Of a stretch of DNA of 16,085 nucleotides, positions 7,834 through 16,084 are shown piece by piece. Each line of letters begins with the position of its first letter. Within the stretch, counting starts at the first letter, position 1. Below the pieces are notes generated by a model, which searched no databases, was not told where the DNA came from, and was given only the letters and a program-made list of their open reading frames with translations. Where the stretch lies: positions 1 to 16,085 of the IMG/VR virus record IMGVR_UViG_3300045988_169639; one strand, 5' to 3'. The DNA comes from a virus. A program made the position numbers and the translations under genes.

Positions 7834-7865
7834 TTTGGAAATTGAAATTTTATGTATTATCTTTG
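7834..7865 (+). promoter_or_regulatory. Bacteroidota-type promoter motif P2, rightward.
   Basis: TTTG (7834-7837) is followed by 20 nt and then TATCTTTG (7858-7865). It is an inverted copy of the 16-mer found at the leftward promoter. Confidence 0.5.
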
Positions 7866-7900
7866 TACTATCAAACTAAAACTACTTCCATATTGAAAAT

Positions 7901-7935
7901 TGAGCTGGGATTAATTCCCAGTTTAATTTTAATCT
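7901..7935 (+). terminator. Hairpin plus T-rich tract in the helicase leader (intrinsic-terminator-like or attenuator-like).
   Basis: The core stem is CTGGGA-ttaat-TCCCAG (7905-7921), extendable with A-T and G-T pairs to 7901-7925. It is followed by TTTAATTTTAATCTTT. Confidence 0.4.
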
Positions 7936-8023
7936 TTACTGTAACTTTTTTACTAATATTTTGTAGTAAGATAAATAAAAAAAGTTACATATAAAATTTA
8001 TTAACTTATTAAAAATTACTATT

Positions 8024-9742
8024 ATGAAAACTTATTTAAATAATTTAATCAATGAATTACCTACTAACTGTTTATTTGATAAAGGAAAAGTTGGATGTGG
8101 TGGAACTTCAATGGCTTTAGAGTGTGATAAGCCTTATGTTATATGTGTTCCATTTGTAAGCTTAGTTGAGAATAAACTTGCTCAATATCCTAATGAAAGA
8201 CGTAAAGAGCCTATTTTTGGAGTTTATCAAGGTATTACTAAGACAGACATTGAAGCTTATGTATCTTCAGTTAAATGCCCTAAAATCATTGTTACTTATA
8301 ATTCTCTTTATAAAGTAATAGAAGCAGTAAATCCTAAAGATTATAGCTTATTAATTGATGAATATCATATACTATTTAATCAATATAGTCTTAGAAGAGA
8401 TGCAATTAAAGATGTATTAAAGACATATAGTCTATTTAAAGAATATACATTTATGACTGCAACTCCATTAGAAGATGAATTTGTTTTAGATGAATTGTCT
8501 AAACTGCCATTAGTAAAACAAGAATGGGATGATGTTATTGAGACTAAAGTTCAGACTGTTAAATGCAAGAATGTAGAAGCTTCCACAATTAAGCTTATAA
8601 ATGGATTTTTAAGTGGGAATGTTGAAGGTAATGCTTATATATTTGTTAACTCTGTTGACTTTATAAAGAATCTTATTTTAAAGGCTAAACTTACAGCAGA
8701 TAACACAAGAGTAGTATATTCTAAGAATAATAGAACTAAACTGCCAATTCAGAATTCTTCAGTAAATGATGAACCTAAGAAGATTAATTTGTTGACTTCT
8801 ACTGTATTTGAAGGTTCTGATATTTATGATGAAAATGGAAGAATTATTGTAGTTAGTGATTCCTCTAAAGCTCAGACTCTTTTAGATATATCTACTTCAA
8901 TTCAACAGATTGCTGGTAGAATTAGAAATAGTAAATATTTAAACTGGATAACTCATCTTTACTCAGCAACAAGATATGCAGATATTAGTTATGAAGACTT
9001 TAAAAAGAAGAATATCCAGAATATTGAGGAAACTAAGATTGCTGTAGATGCTTACAATGCAATGCCTGAAGTTGCAAGAAAGAAACTTAAAGAATTTACA
9101 TCTGATACTTATATCCAAGTAAATGAGGATTATACCTTTGAATTTGACCCAAATATGGCTAAAGTAGATATATTCAATTTTAAGGTTGCAAGAGGTTTAT
9201 ACTCTGTAAGAGTTAATCTTACTAATGAATATCTAAAGAATGGCTTTATAAAGGTTGCTGAATGTGAAGATAAATCTATTAAGATAGACCTTGAAGCTCC
9301 TAGTAAGTCATTTCAGGAGCTTATTAAAGATGTAAGAGCTGAATGGGAAACTAAATTTAAAGTTGGAACTCCTATATTAAATGAAGCTCTAATTAAATAT
9401 CCTTGGTTAAATGATGCAATTAATAAACTGGGATTTGAAAGAATGGCAACTTTGGGTTATTGCATTAAAGATATTAAAGAGGAGCTTGTTAAAATATCAG
9501 ATAAAAATATGCCAAATAAGGTTGCCAAATTACTTACAAGAGATATTCAGAATGGTATGTTCTACAATTTAGCTTTATTGAAGAATAAGATTGCTGATGT
9601 ATATAAGACTTTAGGTATAAAGAAAACTGCAAAGGCAACAGATATTGAACACTATTTTGAAGTTAGAAAATCAACTAAAACTGAAAAGGATGTTAGAAGC
9701 AAAGGATACATTATTATTAGACCAAGATTCATATTTAAATAG
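8024..9742 (+). CDS. Superfamily 2 (DExH-type) helicase with an uncharacterised C-terminal region of about 250 aa.
   Basis: It is an intact 572-aa ORF. Motifs are P-loop GKVGCGGTS, motif II LLIDEYH, motif III MTATP, motif V-like LTSTVFEGSDI and motif VI QQIAGRIRN. It has four Trp codons, all TGG, and no in-frame TGA. The stop is TAG. Confidence 0.8.
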   Translation: MKTYLNNLINELPTNCLFDKGKVGCGGTSMALECDKPYVICVPFVSLVENKLAQYPNERRKEPIFGVYQGITKTDIEAYVSSVKCPKIIVTYNSLYKVIEAVNPKDYSLLIDEYHILFNQYSLRRDAIKDVLKTYSLFKEYTFMTATPLEDEFVLDELSKLPLVKQEWDDVIETKVQTVKCKNVEASTIKLINGFLSGNVEGNAYIFVNSVDFIKNLILKAKLTADNTRVVYSKNNRTKLPIQNSSVNDEPKKINLLTSTVFEGSDIYDENGRIIVVSDSSKAQTLLDISTSIQQIAGRIRNSKYLNWITHLYSATRYADISYEDFKKKNIQNIEETKIAVDAYNAMPEVARKKLKEFTSDTYIQVNEDYTFEFDPNMAKVDIFNFKVARGLYSVRVNLTNEYLKNGFIKVAECEDKSIKIDLEAPSKSFQELIKDVRAEWETKFKVGTPILNEALIKYPWLNDAINKLGFERMATLGYCIKDIKEELVKISDKNMPNKVAKLLTRDIQNGMFYNLALLKNKIADVYKTLGIKKTAKATDIEHYFEVRKSTKTEKDVRSKGYIIIRPRFIFK

Positions 9743-9902
9743 AATTGCGGATATTAAAGAAACTCTTAAAAAGTCAGAAGATACTATTAAGGAGTTTGAT
9801 AAGTGAATGAATGAATTTAAAGAGAATTCTAAGAAATTAGGAGATATTATAGATAGAGTATTAGCACAAAGAGATTTTACATTTATTTCTAAATTTGATT
9901 AA
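9690..9902 (+). CDS. Small coiled-coil protein (70 aa). The start is uncertain and could instead be ATG 9807.
   Basis: The frame opens after TAA 9618-9620, with ATG at 9690-9692, in-frame TGA at 9804-9806 and TAA at 9900-9902. Translation: ..NRIADIKETLKKSEDTIKEFDK-W-MNEFKENSKKLGDIIDRVLAQRDFTFISKFD. It overlaps the helicase 3' end by 53 nt. Confidence 0.4.
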
Positions 9903-9904
9903 TT

Positions 9905-10045
9905 ATGGATGATCATTTATTTAAAAAGCTTGAAGAACTAGAATACAGAATAGTTCAACTAGAAAACCAGAATAGAGGTTTAGTTTGGGAAGAAGTAGAA
10001 GAAATGCCAAAACCAGAAATTACTAATGCAACATATACTGATTAA
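9905..10045 (+). CDS. Small hypothetical protein (46 aa).
   Basis: Translation: ATG 9905-9907, MDDHLFKKLEELEYRIVQLENQNRGLVWEEVEEMPKPEITNATYTD, TAA 10043-10045. It is tightly packed between its neighbours. Confidence 0.4.
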   Translation: MDDHLFKKLEELEYRIVQLENQNRGLVWEEVEEMPKPEITNATYTD

Positions 10046-10046
10046 T

Positions 10047-10190
10047 ATGAAATACCAAACCTATAAATTATGTATAAATGGAGTGTATTATGTATATGTA
10101 ATACCAGAAAATAGTAAGTTTTTAGTAGACTTACAAACAGGAGATTTAATACCTAAAGAAGATGATAAATTATTTGAAATGATGGAATAA
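10047..10190 (+). CDS. Small hypothetical protein (47 aa).
   Basis: Translation: ATG 10047-10049, MKYQTYKLCINGVYYVYVIPENSKFLVDLQTGDLIPKEDDKLFEMME, TAA 10188-10190. The terminator follows directly. Confidence 0.4.
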   Translation: MKYQTYKLCINGVYYVYVIPENSKFLVDLQTGDLIPKEDDKLFEMME

Positions 10191-10198
10191 ATGAAAAT

Positions 10199-10229
10199 AG
10201 GAGGGTTATTTGCCCTCCTTTTCTTTTTT
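10199..10229. terminator. Rho-independent terminator at the convergence point of the rightward and leftward transcription units.
   Basis: AGGAGGG-ttatttg-CCCTCCT forms a 7-bp GC-rich stem, followed by TTTCTTTTTT on the + strand. On the minus strand the same hairpin is followed by ATTTTCATTTATT. Confidence 0.7.
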
Positions 10230-10230
10230 A

Positions 10231-10821
10231 TTAAACATATCTTCACTTGAATCCTTTTACTTTATAACCTTCTCTAATTGCTTTAGCAATAGAATTTTTA
10301 TGAACTCCGACATCTAAAGAAGCACTAACTGCACAATCATATTCTTTAATAAGAATATCATCTTTATATGCACCTACTTTCTTAGCTCTTGGATTATTAC
10401 CAAAAGAATTATTTAAATAGCTCAAATCTCTTCCTTTCTGGCTATCACTCATCTTTTTCCTAGTTTCTTCTGATGGATGTCTTCCAATACTTTTAGCTCT
10501 TATCTTGTCTTTTCTTTCTTGAGTAAATGTAATTCCTAATGTGCCATCACCTCCGTCTGTAGCATTATAACCGTATTTCAGATTACGAGTATTATATCTA
10601 TAAATAAGAATCTTCTCTAATGTTTTAGCACAAGCTTCTGGTAATCCTTCTTTAACTATAATGTGTTCAAATCCATCTCATCCATATTTTTTAATAGCAT
10701 TTTCAAATGGCTGTTTTCTATAGCCAAGACCGTTTGCCCATCGTATCTCTGGCTTCTTACAAGTAATTCCAATATATTTCTTACCATTAATCTTGTTTAA
10801 ATGAACATATACACTATACAT
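10231..10821 (-). CDS. GIY-YIG homing endonuclease, copy c (196 aa): NUMOD3-like linker and NUMOD1/IENR1-like C-terminus.
   Basis: ATG at 10819-10821 ([20 protein letters not shown]..). Track ORFs 10678-10872 and 10243-10452 lie in one frame, joined through TGA at 10678-10680 ([15 protein letters not shown]..). TGA at 10243-10245 gives the ending ..[12 protein letters not shown] before TAA 10231-10233. It is a paralogue of copy b. Confidence 0.85.
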
Positions 10822-11263
10822 ATAAATTACCTTTCTTTCTTCGTTGTAATCCTTTAATACTATATAAAGCAATATGCACTCAGTGAGCAGTACTACTTCT
10901 TTCTATAAAGCATTCGTCAAAATCATACTTTTCAATAGCTTCAGTAATCCAAACCTGAAATTCTTTCATTTGACCGTTACTTGGAATTATATCTGCTGCA
11001 TATCCTGTTAGATGGGCAGATGTCAAAGATCCTCCTACAGCTTTATTAAGCTCATTACATCTATAACCTGAATTCACACTTATTGCTGGATTCCCCAACC
11101 GATTAACATCACAATACTCTGCCCAATCACTTCTTAATGGGTCTAAAAGTTTCTCGACTAACTCTATAAGGTGTTCAGTAATCTCTTTATTTGGAGTATT
11201 ATCTATCTTCTTAATAGAAGCTGTATCAGATCTTGTTAATTCACTAATAGTAAAATATTTCAT
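10814..11263 (-). CDS. Endolysin, peptidase M15 family (L-Ala-D-Glu / D-Ala-D-Ala peptidase type), 149 aa.
   Basis: [28 protein letters not shown] carries the H-x6-D zinc motif. The track ends at TGA 10880-10882. Read-through gives ..[29 protein letters not shown] and TAG 10814-10816, restoring the family's W-V-H-(V/I) motif that carries the third zinc ligand. Confidence 0.85.
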
Positions 11264-11424
11264 TATTTAATAATATCTTTAAGCATAGTATAACGGTAAA
11301 ATAAATGACATCCTGCACCAAGTGCTATGAGTACTAATGTAATCCAAAATGGAATTACTTTTACCATTAAAAATACTAAGATTATAATTACTATTGCTAT
11401 TAAATATTTCATCCAATATTTCAT
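11263..11424 (-). CDS. Holin candidate (53 aa, two predicted TM helices).
   Basis: Translation: ATG 11422-11424, MKYWMKYLIAIVIIILVFLMVKVIPFWITLVLIALGAGCHLFYRYTMLKDIIK. TAA 11263-11265 overlaps the endolysin ATG as TAATG. It has a charged C-terminus and no TGA. Confidence 0.6.
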   Translation of the reverse strand: MKYWMKYLIAIVIIILVFLMVKVIPFWITLVLIALGAGCHLFYRYTMLKDIIK

Positions 11425-11427
11425 AAC

Positions 11428-12081
11428 TTATTTATTTAAAATTATACTTACTTTAATTCCTGCATCTCTTAGTTTTACTCAAGTATCAACTGGCATCTCA
11501 TTATCACAATAAGATAAGCCTAAAATTCCAATATCTCTATTTTCTGATTTTAAATAGAATATTGCTATCTTATTAACCTCATTAGATTTAAATGCATAAT
11601 ACATTCTTCTATCTAATTCCTTTATATCTTCAACATCTCCAAATCATCCTCCTTTTTTAGATGTTTCCAATATAAATAAATAATCAGATAATAGGAAGTC
11701 TTTATAGTGACTTGAAACTGGAGCAACTCCAGGTTCTGTTTCTTCACTATTCATAATGCCATAAGTGAATGGTAATCCTCCTAATCCTGAAGTGCTATTA
11801 TGATACTCAATAACTCAAGCTCTATCTGCATTCGTATCATTTAAAAGATCTTTAAGGATATATCTAACCTTAAGATCCGCTTCTTGTCGTATTACTTGAT
11901 TAGTATTATGAACTGTTTCTATATAACTTACAACTTTATCATATATTATTCCTGGATTAGTACTTATAATTATTACATAAGAAATAAATATAAATCCAAA
12001 TCCACCTTTAATTATTTTCCACAGTCCATATTTATCTACTCATTCTAATACCTTTCCAAACCAGTTTAATTTATTTTCCAT
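11428..12081 (-). CDS. N-terminally membrane-anchored protein of the lysis cassette (217 aa); function unknown. Invisible in the standard code.
   Basis: Not in the track. ATG 12079-12081 overlaps the upstream TAA. There are four in-frame TGAs (12040-12042, 11815-11817, 11644-11646, 11479-11481), and the stop is TAA 11428-11430. Translation: MENKLNWFGKVLE-W-VDKYGLWKIIKGGFGFIFISYVIIISTNPG.. then a soluble domain of about 170 aa (..DRA-W-VIEYHNSTSGLGGLPFTYG..KKGG-W-FGDVEDIKELDRR..PVDT-W-VKLRDAGIKVSIILNK). Confidence 0.7.
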
Positions 12082-12506
12082 TACATATTATCAGAACAAG
12101 TACCCAGAGTGTTGTCTACAGCTAAATCAACTCTAACAAATACTCCAGTACAAATATCTTTGAACTTCTGATAAAATGGAGTAAAAATTAAAGGATAAGA
12201 AATATCAACTTCTGGATATTGGTTATTAAATCGGTTAATTATATTAGTTAATGCTAATATTCCAGCTGATTGCTCTTCAAGCTGATTATTATCAGTCTCA
12301 TCCCATCTTGCTATAAAATAGAGATTTAAAGAGTAAGTAATAGTATCCTCATCCATATTAAATGTATTTGGAGTTATATAAAATACATTATATTCAATAG
12401 TTGGGATACTATTAAGTTCATATATATCCTTACTTCCTACAAAATTAATATTGGGTTCTTCAAGAGCACAAGCTTTTAAATTGTTTATTAATTCAAAATA
12501 CGTCAT
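12081..12506 (-). CDS. Hypothetical structural-module protein (141 aa).
   Basis: ATG at 12504-12506 lies one nt after the upstream TAA (MTYFELINNLK..). The track start at 12608 is a GTG inside the upstream gene. The stop is TAA 12081-12083. Confidence 0.6.
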   Translation of the reverse strand: MTYFELINNLKACALEEPNINFVGSKDIYELNSIPTIEYNVFYITPNTFNMDEDTITYSLNLYFIARWDETDNNQLEEQSAGILALTNIINRFNNQYPEVDISYPLIFTPFYQKFKDICTGVFVRVDLAVDNTLGTCSDNM

Positions 12507-12507
12507 C

Positions 12508-13185
12508 TTACTTACTCTTTTTATTGTTATCACTTGAAGGGAAATCATAAGCTCTTTGCAGAGGACCTTCACAAGAATTATATCTCCAACCTTTACCTCT
12601 AGCTCCACCTAACCAAATAGTGCAAGATGAACTTGAGTACATATTTGGATACATATCTTTAAGAGGTTTATAAGAATACAATTCAGGAAAATCATTATAA
12701 TATGTAATTACCCAATTTTGCAATCTTGTTTTAAAGAAATCTGCTTTATCTCTATAATATTTCTTAATAAGATTAACTTGATTAATATCAGAAGTTAAAT
12801 CTTTCTCATCATCAGTCCTCATAACCCCAAAGTTACTAAGCTTAAATGAGATGGGTATAGTAATTTCACTTAATACTTGATAAAGTAAATAGGGTTGAAT
12901 ATAGTAATCTAGCAATTCTTTATATCTATGATTTTCTGGGTCATCTATAGAAGTAGGATCATAAATAGGAGGTTCTATTGGATGAACTGGTTTATTTGGA
13001 TCTTTCCAATCGATTACTAATTTCTGAATCTTTTCTAAGAGCTTAGTTCCAATTAATGACTGAAGCTCAATATCTTGTGCAAGTTTAATTGCTGACTGAA
13101 GATATTTACCAGAAACATTATTGTCTAAATTGGATTCTGATTTTATATAATCTTCAGATATTAATAGTACATTTCTATATTCCAT
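12508..13185 (-). CDS. Hypothetical structural-module protein (225 aa); possible head-tail adaptor.
   Basis: It is an intact ORF with TAA stop. It lies between the portal/HEG and the lysis genes. The functional call rests on position only. Confidence 0.55.
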   Translation of the reverse strand: MEYRNVLLISEDYIKSESNLDNNVSGKYLQSAIKLAQDIELQSLIGTKLLEKIQKLVIDWKDPNKPVHPIEPPIYDPTSIDDPENHRYKELLDYYIQPYLLYQVLSEITIPISFKLSNFGVMRTDDEKDLTSDINQVNLIKKYYRDKADFFKTRLQNWVITYYNDFPELYSYKPLKDMYPNMYSSSSCTIWLGGARGKGWRYNSCEGPLQRAYDFPSSDNNKKSK

Positions 13186-13828
13186 AATAATATTTATAAT
13201 TTTTGCAGGGTTTATTTTTTCTACAAGATCTAGATATACTAGAAGAATCTACATTATTCTTCTCTCCAGCTTCCTTAGCTGATTTATACTCACAAATAAA
13301 ATTACCATCTAAATCATACTTATATACTTTTTTGCACTGACGTTCTGAAATTAGTTGTTTTTCTTTATCTGAGAGTTTCATACCTTTATTTCAAGGAGTT
13401 TTGCCTAATCTTGCCTCCCTCATTTTACGCTTGCTTTCATCTGAATGCTGTTTACCATAAAATGAGTTATTTTCTCCTGATCTTATAATTCTAAGACTAT
13501 CTTTATAATCTTGTGAAAAAGAATATCCACAAGTACCGTCTCCTCCATCAGTTAAATTATACCCATATTTTGGATTTCTAGTATTATACTTATAAATCAG
13601 AATCTTTTCTAAAGTCTTAGCACAAGCTTCTGGAAGATTATCTCTAATTATAATATGTTCAAAATTATCTCATCCATATTTTTTAATTGCTCTGCTAAAA
13701 TAAAGATTATTCTTGTAACCTTGACCTTTAGTTCCCCATCTATTATTTAAAGTAAGTGATGTTATTCCAAAATATAATTTATTATCAGCCATATTCTTAT
13801 GGCAGTACACTGTATAATTATTCAACAT
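13175..13828 (-). CDS. GIY-YIG homing endonuclease, copy b (217 aa).
   Basis: ATG at 13826-13828 ([85 protein letters not shown]..). TGAs lie at 13670-13672 and 13391-13393. It joins track ORF 13175-13381 and ends at TAG. It overlaps the portal stop and the next gene's start by 11 nt each. Confidence 0.85.
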
Positions 13829-14885
13829 TTTCTGCATTGTCTGACATTCCTTTTGGAGTTAAACTAAATGGTTCAATAGTAATACTATTCTTAATGCCGA
13901 AGATTTTATCAAATGAGTCACAAATTTCTGATTGTATTGGGCGTACAAAAGTACGATTATATAGCTTAAATGCTTCATTAAACTCATTTTCATTAAATCC
14001 TGAGCTATAGTTTAAACCGAACAACGAAGGATTAGCTCTGAAGGCACAGAATATTTGATCTCTGGTTCTCTCAGATAATGATTGATATTTCTCATCAAAA
14101 TCATCAGAATCTAATCTTTCAATAGTAGTCTTATTTGCCTCATCTGCATTATATGAAATCAATATTCTGCCAGCATTCTGATAACCAGAGAACTTCTCAT
14201 TAATATTCCTCTCAATCTCCTCTCTAATTTCATCTGTAGGTTCCCCATTATTAAAGTTAATAATAAGATTACCCATAAATCCATTATTGATGTTATTTAA
14301 ATGGAATTCATTAATATTTTTCTCAGTTTCACAAGATAAAATAGCAGCTCCATAAACAGGAATAGGATATACTCCTCTTGTTATATAACCTTTATTATAA
14401 AATATACTAGCTGGATTTTCATCCCCAGCTCCAAATTTTGGATATTTTATAGCTTTTACAGACCAAGCTGTCCAATCAGTTGCATAATATAATATATCAT
14501 TCTTTTCGCTTGACCTTACATTCATAAAATCAATATGATATATCTCTGCAACTCTTCCGAGCATATCTCTAATTACTTGGATAGCATAACCTCCAAATAT
14601 CATCTTATCAATAGTGATTTTTCTCATTATATCAACTATTGTTTCACCTTTCTTGTTTACAACTACTTCAAATCCTGGAGCATTACATTTAACATCATTA
14701 CCAACGATAAAGTCAGCAGAACCATTAATAATGGATTGGAGAGTGGCAACATTTAAATATAAATCCCATAGATATAATGGATATTTGTTATCTTCTCCTC
14801 ACATTATCATATCAGAACCTCTTTTCCTTGTTTCCGTTGGAAGAACGATGTTAGATTGAATAAAAGGATCTAGGGCTGACATCAT
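13818..14885 (-). CDS. Portal protein (about 355 aa).
   Basis: Track ORF 13818-14627 extends upstream in frame through TGA 14799-14801 to ATG ATG at 14880-14885 (MMSALDPFIQSNIVLPTETRKRGSDMIM-W-GEDNKYPLYLWDLYLN..). The sequence resembles portal families (..YGAAILSCETEKNINEFHLNNINNGFMGN..ERLDSDDFDEKYQSLSERTRDQIFCAFRANPSLFG..). Confidence 0.7.
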
Positions 14886-14895
14886 TATTTTACTT

Positions 14896-15285
14896 TTATT
14901 TTCTTTCATAAGCTGTGTATTTTGATTGATAGTCATATTGGTATTTATTATTATCATAATTACCTACCCTCATTAAACCTGAGCTTAGTATGCTTATGGG
15001 AGTACCAGCTACAAGTATCTCTGTTCCATTTGTGAGAGTATTGGAATATGTAACTAATATTACAGGATTACCATACAATTCACTTCTATAAATATTATTA
15101 GTATCAATGATTATATCATACTTATTAGGATTTTCAAATAAGATATATTGATACTCTCCGTCATCCATATCTTCTAAAGTTATATCAAATTTATAATATA
15201 TATTTTCAGAATAATTCTGATTATTTAAATTATAAATATAAATTTGTTTTGTTACAGTATGCTGAAGAACAAGACTATAATTCAT
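14896..15285 (-). CDS. Hypothetical protein (129 aa).
   Basis: It is an intact ORF with ATG 15283-15285 and TAA 14896-14898. It is Asn/Tyr-rich and has no recognisable motif. Confidence 0.5.
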   Translation of the reverse strand: MNYSLVLQHTVTKQIYIYNLNNQNYSENIYYKFDITLEDMDDGEYQYILFENPNKYDIIIDTNNIYRSELYGNPVILVTYSNTLTNGTEILVAGTPISILSSGLMRVGNYDNNKYQYDYQSKYTAYERK

Positions 15286-15940
15286 ATTTTCAAATATATT
15301 TTTTATATGTGGGAATTATGCCTCTTAAAGCATTATATACACCACTTCTTGTAAATTCATCTTCTAGCTCTCTAATTCTACTATATTTTTTAATTAGTTT
15401 TCCATCTAAAGAGTATCTGAGAATATATTTATATTTGGGATTTGGCCTAGTCTTTCAAGCTTCTTTCATAGCTTGTTTACATTCCTCACTTCTTGATTTT
15501 CCATATAGAGGATGAAATTCTCCAGATCTACAATAATTACTAGTATGTTTGCCGTAATTTGGATTCTTTTCTCCTCTTTTTGCTTCAGACAATCTTTTTC
15601 TCGTTTCCTCAGTTATTATATGTCCAAATCCACCATCTCCTCCATCTGTCATATTATATCCATTTATTTTAGAATTAAATAAATTAATATATTTCTTTTC
15701 AGCTTCATCTAATTTTCTATTTAATAAACTTTCTGAGGTACAACAAAATACCTGTATAGTTTCGATAATAAAATTTTTATCTCCATATTTTCTAATAGCT
15801 CGACTTAAATGATAATCCAAACCAGATTTTGCTTTCAGTTTATGCTCAATGAACCTACGTTTAATATCTCTGGTAGTTTTTCCAATATAAATCTTATTGT
15901 TTATTAAATTAGTTATTTTATAAATTGTTCCACTTTGCAT
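15275..15940 (-). CDS. GIY-YIG homing endonuclease, copy a (221 aa): NUMOD3 repeats and NUMOD1/IENR1-like C-terminus.
   Basis: The N-terminus GTIYKITNLINNKIYIGKT..RF.EH is a GIY-YIG motif. The track ends at TGA 15455-15457, but the frame continues (..AMKEA-W-KTRPNPKYKYILRYSLDGKLIKKYSRIRELEDEFTRSGVYNALRGIIPTYKKYI-W-KYEL). A second TGA lies at 15290-15292, and the stop is TAG 15275-15277. Confidence 0.85.
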
Positions 15941-16008
15941 AATTTTTACATTAGTTTTACATATCTTTTTCTTAAAATATAAACTAATTTACTAATGTAT
16001 TAAAATAA

Positions 16009-16084
16009 TTAAAGGAGACCTAAGCCTCCTTTAATGTCAAGTTTTTTACTCACTCAAAGTACTAAGAAAAAATAAAAACTGACA
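16009..16084 (-). repeat. Structured intergenic element, copy B: a 50-nt inverted repeat (16035-16084) followed by a 9-bp hairpin (16009-16034).
   Basis: The minus strand reads TGTCAGTTTTTATTT-N17-TGAGTAAAAAACTTGACA, then TTAAAGGAG-gcttaggt-CTCCTTTAA, then TTATTTTAAT. It has the same layout as copy A, but the second hairpin has a different sequence. Confidence 0.7.

Follow-up and report, generated by a model that had tools for sequence, protein, structure and literature searches.

Endolysin TGA codon and lysis cassette in a ~31-kb human-gut phage family with TGA-to-Trp recoding

Lysis Cassette and Neighboring Genes

The window analyzed here is a stretch of 16,085 nucleotides covering positions 1 to 16,085 of the IMG/VR virus record IMGVR_UViG_3300045988_169639. 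A putative lysis cassette is located on its minus strand and contains genes for a 217-aa membrane-anchored protein (11428..12081), a 53-aa protein with two hydrophobic segments (11263..11424), and an endolysin (10814..11263). The endolysin has 149 aa if TGA is read as Trp. Its 149-codon frame, translated from the minus strand, contains only one internal TGA, at 10880..10882. Under the standard code (code 11), the open reading frame is 10880..11263 and encodes 127 aa, so that 22 residues are lost, as was already stated in a previous sequence-only reading of this locus.

By profile, motif, and modeled fold, the endolysin is a zinc peptidase of the Peptidase_M15_3 family with the LAS fold, and hydrolase activity is predicted for it. 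The protein matches the Pfam family PF08291 (E = 7.9e-15, 55.4 bits with a cut-off of 23.2) and the PHROG family 894, annotated as "endolysin" (E = 1.9e-27). The SxHxxGxAxD motif of LAS peptidases (PMC3315420) was found at residues 82-91 (10991..11020, minus strand) as S82-A-H84-L-T-G87-Y-A89-A-D91, with His84 and Asp91 as its zinc-motif residues. This motif lies upstream of the TGA. The W-V-H-I segment (residues 128-131) begins at the TGA codon itself, which corresponds to the invariant Trp128 of the W-x-H motif and precedes the codon for His130 (10874..10876, minus strand) by two codons. The sequence-only reading had placed the H-x6-D motif before the TGA and the W-V-H-I segment only after it, and both placements are correct.

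His130 is predicted to be the third (distal) zinc ligand. In 44 homologues, H84, G87, A89, D91, W128, and H130 are invariant, and His130 is the sole invariant His downstream of the HxxxxxxD motif. Residues 3-131 align with positions 2-107 of the 108 positions of the PF08291 profile, and position 107 is reached only if the TGA is read through. In the AF2 model of the protein (pLDDT 96.5), two strands, 127-132 and 143-148, come after the TGA, and His130 sits on the first of them. The best Foldseek match of this model in the PDB is the Zn DD-peptidase of Streptomyces albus (1LBU, E = 4.4e-5), followed by Hedgehog-N, VanY, LdcB, and ChiX. The two proteins share the LAS fold and the SxHxxGxAxD motif, the latter aligning with SRHMYGHAAD (His154...Asp161) of 1LBU. 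PDB sequence searches with the C-terminal 55 residues and with the family profile stopped short of the third-ligand region of 1LBU; thus, the equivalence of His130 to the distal ligand is deduced from the fold match and the invariance, using the known LAS architecture (PMC3315420; PMC4102407). Invariance, Pfam boundary, and fold therefore point to the same residue that the sequence-only reading had proposed for checking by profile or structure. Because termination at the TGA would remove His130 together with the last two β-strands of the model, an active endolysin very probably requires TGA to be read as Trp. The previous claim that the truncated enzyme is inactive can be kept in this form, as a prediction from sequence conservation and the model.

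The closest counterparts of this protein are M15_3 endolysins of Bacteroides phages. One of them, the ORF017 endolysin of the standard-code Bacteroides phage B124-14, has the same MKYFT...IDNTP N-terminus, SxHxxGxAxD motif, and C-terminal W-V-H. The endolysin studied here differs from those of Bacteroides phages in three respects: TGA takes the place of TGG as the Trp codon of the W-x-H motif, 17 extra C-terminal residues form one more strand, and the 3' end of the gene overlaps a gene for a GIY-YIG endonuclease. Trp128 itself is also invariant in homologues from standard-code phages. Many endolysin homologues in the databases were called as truncated forms of 127 or 129 aa ending at the Trp128 TGA.

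The Trp128 column contains TGA in all 15 distinct relatives, and the Trp47 column always contains TGG. A fixed TGA at Trp128 could mean selection for TGA at this position, but 8 of the 70 conserved Trp columns of these phages are likewise all-TGA. The endolysin has three Trp codons, all N-terminal to His130. Thus, a TGA at any one of them would delete the ligand, and the location of the TGA next to His130 has no extra significance.

The gene for the 53-aa protein, a candidate small holin or antiholin, overlaps the endolysin ATG with its stop codon by 1 nt. In the window, both of its Trp codons are TGG, and the family as a whole has 0 TGA and 20 TGG codons in 10 distinct relatives, in agreement with the previous description of this gene as TGA-free. 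No match to this protein was found in Pfam or PHROG.

In the 217-aa protein, an N-terminal TM helix and a long helix are combined with a GAF-like domain at the C-terminus. As previously noted, its synthesis needs four TGA read-throughs, at residues 14, 89, 146, and 201 (12040..12042, 11815..11817, 11644..11646, and 11479..11481, respectively); residues 7 and 21 are encoded by TGG. The AF2 model of this protein (pLDDT 82.7) matches GAF domains in the PDB (Foldseek, E~1e-6, TM-score up to 0.76). In the viral structure library, it matches phage GAF proteins as well as proteins annotated as "Class III holin", "Holin", and "T holin lysis mediator" (for the annotated T-type holins, E from 1e-4 to 1e-3). 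A weak homologue was found in Nonlabens phage P12024S, a cultured phage of Bacteroidota, where its gene immediately precedes those for the endolysin and holin. Sequence searches, including those of Pfam and PHROG, linked it to no holin family. The protein resembles the T4-type holin T in its length class (~218 aa), single N-terminal TM segment, globular α/β C-terminal domain, and place in a lysis cassette, but structurally it is closest to generic GAF domains. On the basis of the model, it may be a holin of the T4 type (class III) or a regulator of lysis.

Downstream of the endolysin, a GIY-YIG homing endonuclease gene (10231..10821, minus strand, 196 aa, 2 TGA codons; Pfam GIY-YIG and NUMOD3) has its ATG inside the endolysin gene, giving an overlap of 8 nt at the 3' end of the latter. 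This gene ends a long block of minus-strand genes, and its presence varies among the relatives. On the opposite strand, a gene for a 572-aa orphan protein (8024..9742, plus strand) was found. This gene is TGA-free, with 0 TGA and 68 TGG codons in 14 distinct relatives, and gene calls show it at full length even where a contig was annotated with code 11. No relative of the protein was found in Pfam, PHROG, or the PDB, and its gene is a candidate early gene expressed before a switch of the code.

TGA Usage in the Genome

The window comes from a family of ~31-kb human-gut phages in which TGA is recoded to Trp genome-wide. Under code 11, the fraction of the window occupied by open reading frames of ≥100 aa is 0.71; under code 4, it rises to 0.91. 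All genes called under code 4 end in TAA (414 genes) or TAG (97 genes) and have lengths matching those of their relatives; thus, TGA is not needed as a terminator. Among 70 Trp columns conserved across the relatives, 36 are mixed TGA/TGG, 8 are all-TGA, and 26 are all-TGG, the share of mixed columns being the same as for the A/G-ending codon pairs of Lys, Glu, and Gln. Reading of TGA as Gly (code 25) was rejected, since TGA aligns with invariant Trp residues and interchanges with TGG. A megablast search of the whole window against GenBank phages gave no match. One copy of the phage is contained in a scaffold of 193 kb, which may represent a prophage or a concatemer.

In total, 28 TGA and 41 TGG codons were found in the window, with TGA present in 17 of 26 genes. 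Across the relatives, there are 550 TGA and 715 TGG codons, and 63% of the 385 distinct genes contain TGA. The TGA-bearing genes include those for the large terminase (TerL), portal, tape measure, tail proteins, an HTH protein, and all homing endonucleases. Some genes have up to 11 TGA codons, and there are long genes with 8-11 of them. TGA accounts for 43% of Trp codons, as compared with 71-87% of A-ending codons in comparable pairs and with 80-90% of TGA in natively code-4 genomes (Mgcod preprint). The base following TGA (A in 43%, G in 34%) differs little from the base following TGG, which indicates no special read-through context.

TGA is distributed unevenly among gene families, as judged from statistics that count related genomes as independent samples and are thus not phylogenetically independent. 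The TGA fraction of the endolysin (0.42) equals the mean for the genome (0.43), and a comparison with the remainder of the genome gave p = 0.8. The 217-aa TM protein, with a fraction of 0.71 (q = 0.008), is the only TGA-enriched member of the cassette. Other TGA-rich families are the homing endonucleases (0.68) and a 110-aa membrane protein encoded outside the cassette (0.68). The TGA enrichment of lysis genes, which the sequence-only reading had put forward for checking, is seen in the 217-aa protein but not in the endolysin, and the 53-aa protein shows the reverse. TGA-free families include the 79-aa protein (0/13), protease (0/19), scaffold (0/6), major capsid protein (0/15), and a 174-aa protein (0/12). 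Since the genes for the prohead protease, scaffold, and major capsid protein are TGA-free, TGA use is not a simple divider between late and early genes. The genes for the 59-, 79-, 572-, and 46-aa proteins, located by the divergent intergenic region, have no or almost no TGA. The 144-aa, 102-aa, and HTH protein genes, which come next, carry TGA.

Host and Decoding of TGA

The host of this phage is probably a member of Bacteroidales that uses the standard code and has a cell wall. The best 80 genomic homologues of the endolysin (GTDB) belong nearly all to Bacteroidales, including isolate genomes. The closest endolysins of cultured phages are those of Bacteroides and Prevotella phages, with 45-50% identity to the Bacteroides phage enzymes. 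Additionally, Shine-Dalgarno motifs are missing upstream of 23 of 27 genes. A scan of 185,579 GTDB species genomes for TerL, as a prophage or host link, revealed no relative, and neither CRISPR nor prophage links to a host were obtained. Among the 80 GTDB endolysin loci, only one, a 4.6-kb contig from horse faeces, has other phage genes (~30% identity), and it carries no host information. The known bacteria that read TGA as Trp are wall-less Mollicutes or insect endosymbionts. With a probable standard-code, walled host, a change of the code during infection is plausible.

No genes for a decoding machinery were found. ARAGORN predicted 0 tRNAs in the window and in the loci of 30 relatives, which together cover the whole circular genome, and an Rfam scan at E ≤ 1 found no tRNA. 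Relaxed ARAGORN runs (ps80, ps60, and mitochondrial mode) yielded only noise, with no credible suppressor tRNA. Pfam matches revealed no release factor, aminoacyl-tRNA synthetase, or other code-change gene (RF1, TrpRS) in the ~31-kb genome. An apparent non-coding gap of 333 nt (4552..4884) was considered as a hidden RNA gene and rejected, being an open reading frame of 111 aa. With no tRNA encoded, the phage must rely on some further factor or on host components for decoding of TGA.

Gut phages reading TGA as Trp (code 4) have been described as Agate, Jade, and some crAss-like clades (Borges et al., bioRxiv 10.1101/2021.08.26.457843). The phage studied here shares with them low GC content, gut habitat, and TGA codons in frame where Trp is conserved, and its host, too, probably uses the standard code. 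The same study reported 26-71% of recoded genes in phages of standard-code hosts and 90% where the phage shares the code of its host; the 63% found here falls inside the former range. About 65% of the reported code-4 phages have no suppressor tRNA (Borges et al.), which is also the case here; thus, a suppressor tRNA is not strictly a defining feature. In Agate, the TGA-preferring families are the homing endonuclease and the transmembrane protein of the lysis cassette (Borges et al.), and the same two types of families were found here. In contrast to the published code-4 clades, the genome is ~31 kb instead of 127-200 kb, it lacks any tRNA, release factor, or synthetase, and its genes for the major capsid protein, scaffold, and protease have no TGA, while recoding of structural genes is described for those clades.

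Role of TGA in the Lysis Cassette

The best explanation, to which we assign a probability of about 0.7, is that TGA in the cassette is an ordinary sense codon of a phage recoded throughout its genome, and that the cassette is gated only as most of the phage program is. TGA stands for Trp across the whole genome of this phage, whose host is most likely a standard-code member of Bacteroidales. The cassette, with its T-holin-like TM-GAF protein, two-TM protein of 53 aa, and predicted M15_3/LAS zinc endolysin, lies at the end of a long one-directional gene block, and the TGA at 10880..10882 would simply encode the invariant Trp128. Dependence on TGA is common to about two thirds of all genes. Genes with up to 11 TGA codons, which need efficient decoding although the phage has no tRNA, count against this explanation. 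The shared dependence, together with the unenriched endolysin and the lack of TGA in the 53-aa candidate holin and the capsid genes, argues that lysis is gated no more than the remainder of the program. The claim of the sequence-only reading that the cassette is specifically gated by TGA decoding is therefore not upheld. The locus thus reads as a common instance of what has been published, rather than as a lysis-specific switch.

A further reading, of rather low probability, concerns the way in which the code is changed. A tRNA-less phage of ~31 kb may force efficient UGA-to-Trp decoding in a standard-code Bacteroidales host by a protein-based mechanism, with the factor encoded by a strictly TGA-free early gene. 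For instance, release factor 2 may be inactivated, after which host tRNA-Trp would read UGA. The gene for such a factor would be that of the 572-aa orphan or of the 59-, 79-, or 46-aa protein, and the density of TGA would adjust when, or in what amount, harmful products are made, namely the T-holin-like protein, endolysin, and homing endonucleases.

An alternative explanation, which we regard as unlikely, is that selection has made TGA in the cassette a timing device: neither the endolysin nor, if it is a real holin, the 217-aa protein would be made before the TGA-to-Trp switch, which would set or safeguard the time of lysis. Possible regulation of late or lysis genes of phages by recoding has already been published (Borges et al., bioRxiv 10.1101/2021.08.26.457843). 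The predicted loss of His130 on termination, the TGA fixed at Trp128, and the TGA-rich 217-aa protein, which is T4-holin-like in fold and architecture and whose weak homologue adjoins the endolysin in a cultured Bacteroidota phage, are consistent with such a device. The probable standard-code host and the TGA-free genes for the 59-, 79-, and 572-aa proteins also fit a code switch. Nevertheless, the TGA usage of the endolysin equals the genome mean, the 53-aa membrane protein has no TGA, and TGA is equally frequent in the genes for TerL, tape measure, and a 1118-aa virion protein, as well as in those right after the first two genes of the long block. TGA does not mark late genes, considering the TGA-free protease, scaffold, and major capsid genes. 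Moreover, the cassette is already the last in a one-directional block of ~27 kb, a position that by itself would delay the lysis genes, and no component of a switch was found. As a whole, the interpretation given in the sequence-only reading is supported only in part.

A host with native code 4, whose code the phage would simply use with no gating at all, would account for the lack of a suppressor tRNA, release factor, and aminoacyl-tRNA synthetase, for the efficient decoding needed by long genes with 8-11 TGA codons, and for the presence of TGA in every module, but it is very improbable in view of a peptidoglycan endolysin with relatives in Bacteroidales genomes and in Bacteroides and Prevotella phages, the restriction of known TGA-to-Trp bacteria to Mollicutes and insect endosymbionts (introduction of Borges et al.), a TGA share far below that of native code-4 genomes, several strictly TGA-free families, and a fraction of recoded genes that is typical of standard-code hosts and below the 90% of a shared code.

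This locus is a compact and abundant example of published stop-codon recoding, with no new principle. Annotation with the standard code shortens this endolysin in many database entries. The single TGA of the endolysin gene, located four codons from the end of the minimal catalytic domain, provides a clean on/off reporter of TGA decoding. Finally, a genome of ~31 kb without any tRNA narrows the hunt for a non-tRNA factor of the code change to a few TGA-free genes.

TGA as a sense codon throughout the phage genome

Under the standard code (code 11), ORFs of 100 aa or more span 0.71 of the window; the fraction rises to 0.91 when TGA is read as sense and only to 0.74 when TAG is. The 26 gene calls in the window contain 28 TGA and 41 TGG codons, with TGA present in 17 of the genes, and TAA or TAG closes the genes once TGA counts as sense. 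In about 40 loci on related human-gut contigs of ~30-32 kb, 36 of the 70 conserved Trp columns contain both TGA and TGG; Lys, Glu, and Gln columns mix their A/G-ending codon pairs in the same proportion. TGA is thus a sense codon across the whole phage genome.

A Gly meaning was ruled out: TGA aligns with an invariant Trp of standard-code homologues, and the codon therefore means Trp.

The lysis cassette and the predicted third zinc ligand

The three cassette genes are tightly packed and all lie on the minus strand. The gene for the 217-aa membrane protein (11428-12081) contains four in-frame TGA and two TGG codons, and that for the 53-aa two-TM protein (11263-11424) has two TGG codons and no TGA. 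The 149-codon endolysin ORF (10814-11263) starts with an ATG sharing one base with the preceding stop. Its frame holds a single internal TGA at 10880-10882, corresponding to codon 128, and under code 11 it encodes only 127 aa. The segment carrying the H-x6-D motif (residues 82-91) precedes this TGA, and W-V-H-I (residues 128-131) is found only after it. These positions, the four read-throughs needed for the 217-aa protein, and the lack of TGA in the 53-aa holin candidate all agree with the sequence-only reading.

Residues 3-131 of the read-through endolysin match positions 2-107 of the 108 in the Pfam profile Peptidase_M15_3 (E=7.9e-15), and the protein also matches PHROG 894 'endolysin'. Zinc in LAS enzymes is held by two His and one Asp on a beta-sheet (PMC4102407); in Ply500, the ligands are His80, Asp87, and His133, and the motif is SxHxxGxAxD (PMC3315420). 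Aligned with the Streptomyces albus zinc DD-peptidase 1LBU, the endolysin has H84 and D91 at the positions of His154 and Asp161, and H84, G87, A89, D91, W128, and H130 are among the residues invariant in 44 homologues. The endolysin of Bacteroides phage B124-14, which uses the standard code, shares the SDHMKGFAAD and W-V-H motifs. An AlphaFold model was made for the closest database homologue, P0001, which has 85% overall identity to the endolysin and does not differ from it in the last 53 residues. In this model (pLDDT 96.5), W128 and H130 are predicted on a strand at 127-132, followed by a final strand at 143-148. The best PDB match of the model is 1LBU, followed by Hedgehog N-domains, VanY, LdcB, and ChiX, and the predicted fold is the LAS fold.

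Given the invariance of H130, the model, and the LAS fold, a stop at codon 128 would remove the only candidate distal His together with two strands of the sheet. The earlier proposal that the TGA-terminated endolysin, short of its predicted last zinc ligand, would be inactive is well supported. The location of the TGA beside the ligand is itself unremarkable, since His130 follows all three Trp codons and TGA at any of them would cause the same loss. Trp128 is encoded by TGA in 15 of 15 distinct relatives and Trp47 by TGG in all of them; as 8 of the 70 Trp columns are all-TGA, the fixed TGA at Trp128 is not significant by itself.

Homologues of the 217-aa protein are confined to this phage group (21 sequences). 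Its model (pLDDT 82.7) comprises an N-terminal hydrophobic helix, a long helix, and a C-terminal domain matching PDB GAF domains (E~1e-6, TM up to 0.76). In a viral structure library, it matches same-sized phage 'GAF domain-containing' proteins as well as proteins annotated as 'Class III holin', 'Holin', and 'T holin lysis mediator'; further matches are proteins of crAss-like, Polaribacter, and Tenacibaculum phages. A weak homologue (24.6% identity, E=5e-4) is encoded directly upstream of the endolysin and holin of Nonlabens phage P12024S, which has a Bacteroidota host. The structural matches and this neighbourhood identify the 217-aa protein as part of the lysis cassette, where it may act as a holin of the T4 type or regulate lysis. 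For the 53-aa two-TM protein, no relatives were detected in Pfam or PHROGs. If the 217-aa protein is the real holin, the idea that TGA decoding gates lysis is strengthened, as membrane lesion and wall hydrolase alike would depend on it.

Distribution of TGA among gene families

Recoding as a timer of late and lysis genes is a published hypothesis (bioRxiv 10.1101/2021.08.26.457843). At least one TGA was found in 63% of the 385 distinct family genes, including those for the large terminase (TerL), portal, tape measure, an HTH protein, all homing endonucleases, and an 1118-aa virion protein with 8-11 TGAs. The mean TGA fraction of Trp codons is 0.43 for all genes, 0.42 for the endolysin (p=0.8 vs. 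the rest), and 0.71 for the 217-aa protein (q=0.008), these statistics being descriptive only and counting related genomes as independent samples. The 53-aa cassette protein has TGA at none of 20 Trp codons. Outside the cassette, TGA is preferred in the homing endonucleases (0.68), a 110-aa membrane protein near the terminase genes (0.68), and a 53-aa protein downstream of the 572-aa gene (0.93). TGA-free families are a 572-aa orphan (0 TGA vs. 68 TGG in 14 distinct relatives), a 79-aa protein (0/13), the prohead protease (0/19), scaffold (0/6), major capsid protein (0/15), and a 174-aa tail-tube-like protein (0/12). TGA is therefore not a simple divider of late and early genes. A few genes beside the divergent intergenic region (7138-7280) avoid it, as do those for the most abundant virion proteins, and it is concentrated in harmful or low-demand products. 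The proposed gating of the lysis cassette is only partly supported: endolysin function very probably requires TGA decoding, but the need extends across the genome, and the endolysin shows no TGA enrichment. Dependence on TGA is not special to the lysis genes.

In two related loci outside the window (L010, 788-3485; L018, 19078-20283), the protease, scaffold, major capsid, and 174-aa genes have no TGA, unlike those for the tape measure and large virion proteins; the most highly expressed genes seem to avoid this codon. The 572-aa orphan (8024-9742, plus strand) lies on the strand opposite to the cassette, is missing from one relative (L021), and has no relative in Pfam, PHROG, or PDB. GxGGTS and DEYH stretches, noted by eye, hint at an NTPase, and the gene is a candidate pre-switch early gene. 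A 45-75-nt element at about 2010-2082 (intergenic region 1961-2224) has two or three further intergenic copies per relative, which precede the protease gene and the GIY-YIG/129-aa/portal block or lie close to the 572-aa gene. As a possible recurrent promoter or terminator, it would delimit transcription units.

With about three hydrophobic segments and four TGAs, the 110-aa protein (4885-5217, minus strand), encoded just upstream of the terminase genes, is a second membrane protein rich in TGA and lies outside the lysis cassette. Region 4552-4884 shows 99-100% nucleotide identity across relatives whose endolysins share just 64-84%. A 111-aa Cys-containing ORF there (4460-4795, minus strand) overlaps, in another frame, the start of a 150-aa terminase-small-subunit-like gene. 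Possible explanations of this near-identity are a recombination sweep, a packaging site, and a frameshift arrangement.

Five homing-endonuclease-like genes were found within 16 kb: three of the GIY-YIG type (10231-10821, 13175-13837, and 15275-15940), one HNH (5186-5752), and one T5orf172 (7281-7766). Their presence varies among relatives. The C-terminal 35 residues of the endolysin exist as two mosaic forms, and which form is present varies together with the endonuclease gene downstream; this suggests co-conversion by homing.

Host, decoding, and known recoded phages

The best 80 endolysin homologues among 185,579 species genomes are almost all from Bacteroidales, including isolate genomes of Parabacteroides, Millionella, and Rikenella. 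The closest cultured-phage endolysins, at 45-50% identity, belong to Bacteroides (58 records) and Prevotella (15 records) phages. No Shine-Dalgarno motif was found upstream of 23 of the 27 genes. TGA makes up 43% of Trp codons, vs. 71-87% A-ending codons in comparable A/G pairs; in native code-4 genomes, TGA accounts for 80-90% of Trp codons (Mgcod preprint). The endolysin relatives, the lack of Shine-Dalgarno motifs, and the 43% TGA argue against a natively code-4 host, and several lines point to a walled, standard-code Bacteroidales as the probable host. A copy of the ~31-kb phage lies inside a 193,455-bp scaffold (L039, ENA ERZ28596505 scaffold_39; phage region 160163-180612), and another homologue is on a 176-kb JGI contig. 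The L039 copy could be a concatemer or a product of multi-strain assembly, or be integrated, in which case it would name the host.

No tRNA was found in the window or in loci jointly covering the whole circular genome (ARAGORN, Rfam scan at E<=1, relaxed thresholds), and no release factor or synthetase was present among the Pfam hits. Suppressor tRNAs were reported in only 35% of code-4 phages, and three TGA-preferring families were described in Agate phages: an intron homing endonuclease, a tail protein beside the lysis cassette, and a lysis-cassette transmembrane protein (bioRxiv 10.1101/2021.08.26.457843). The family analyzed here likewise shows TGA bias in homing endonucleases and the lysis-cassette TM protein. 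Unlike Agate, this phage is about four-fold smaller and has no translation-related gene, and the capsid module of its family is TGA-free. Distant relatives (L024-L038, IMG/VR contigs of 31-39 kb) carry a 162-aa virion-module protein at 31-42% identity, have 49-63% GC, and, read with the standard code, already reach a long-ORF coverage of 0.95-1.0. As outgroups, they would be useful to date the recoding.

The phage is a further case of an already published kind of recoding. More interesting is that a tRNA-less 31-kb phage should have TGA read as Trp, at up to 11 codons in one protein, in a probable standard-code host.
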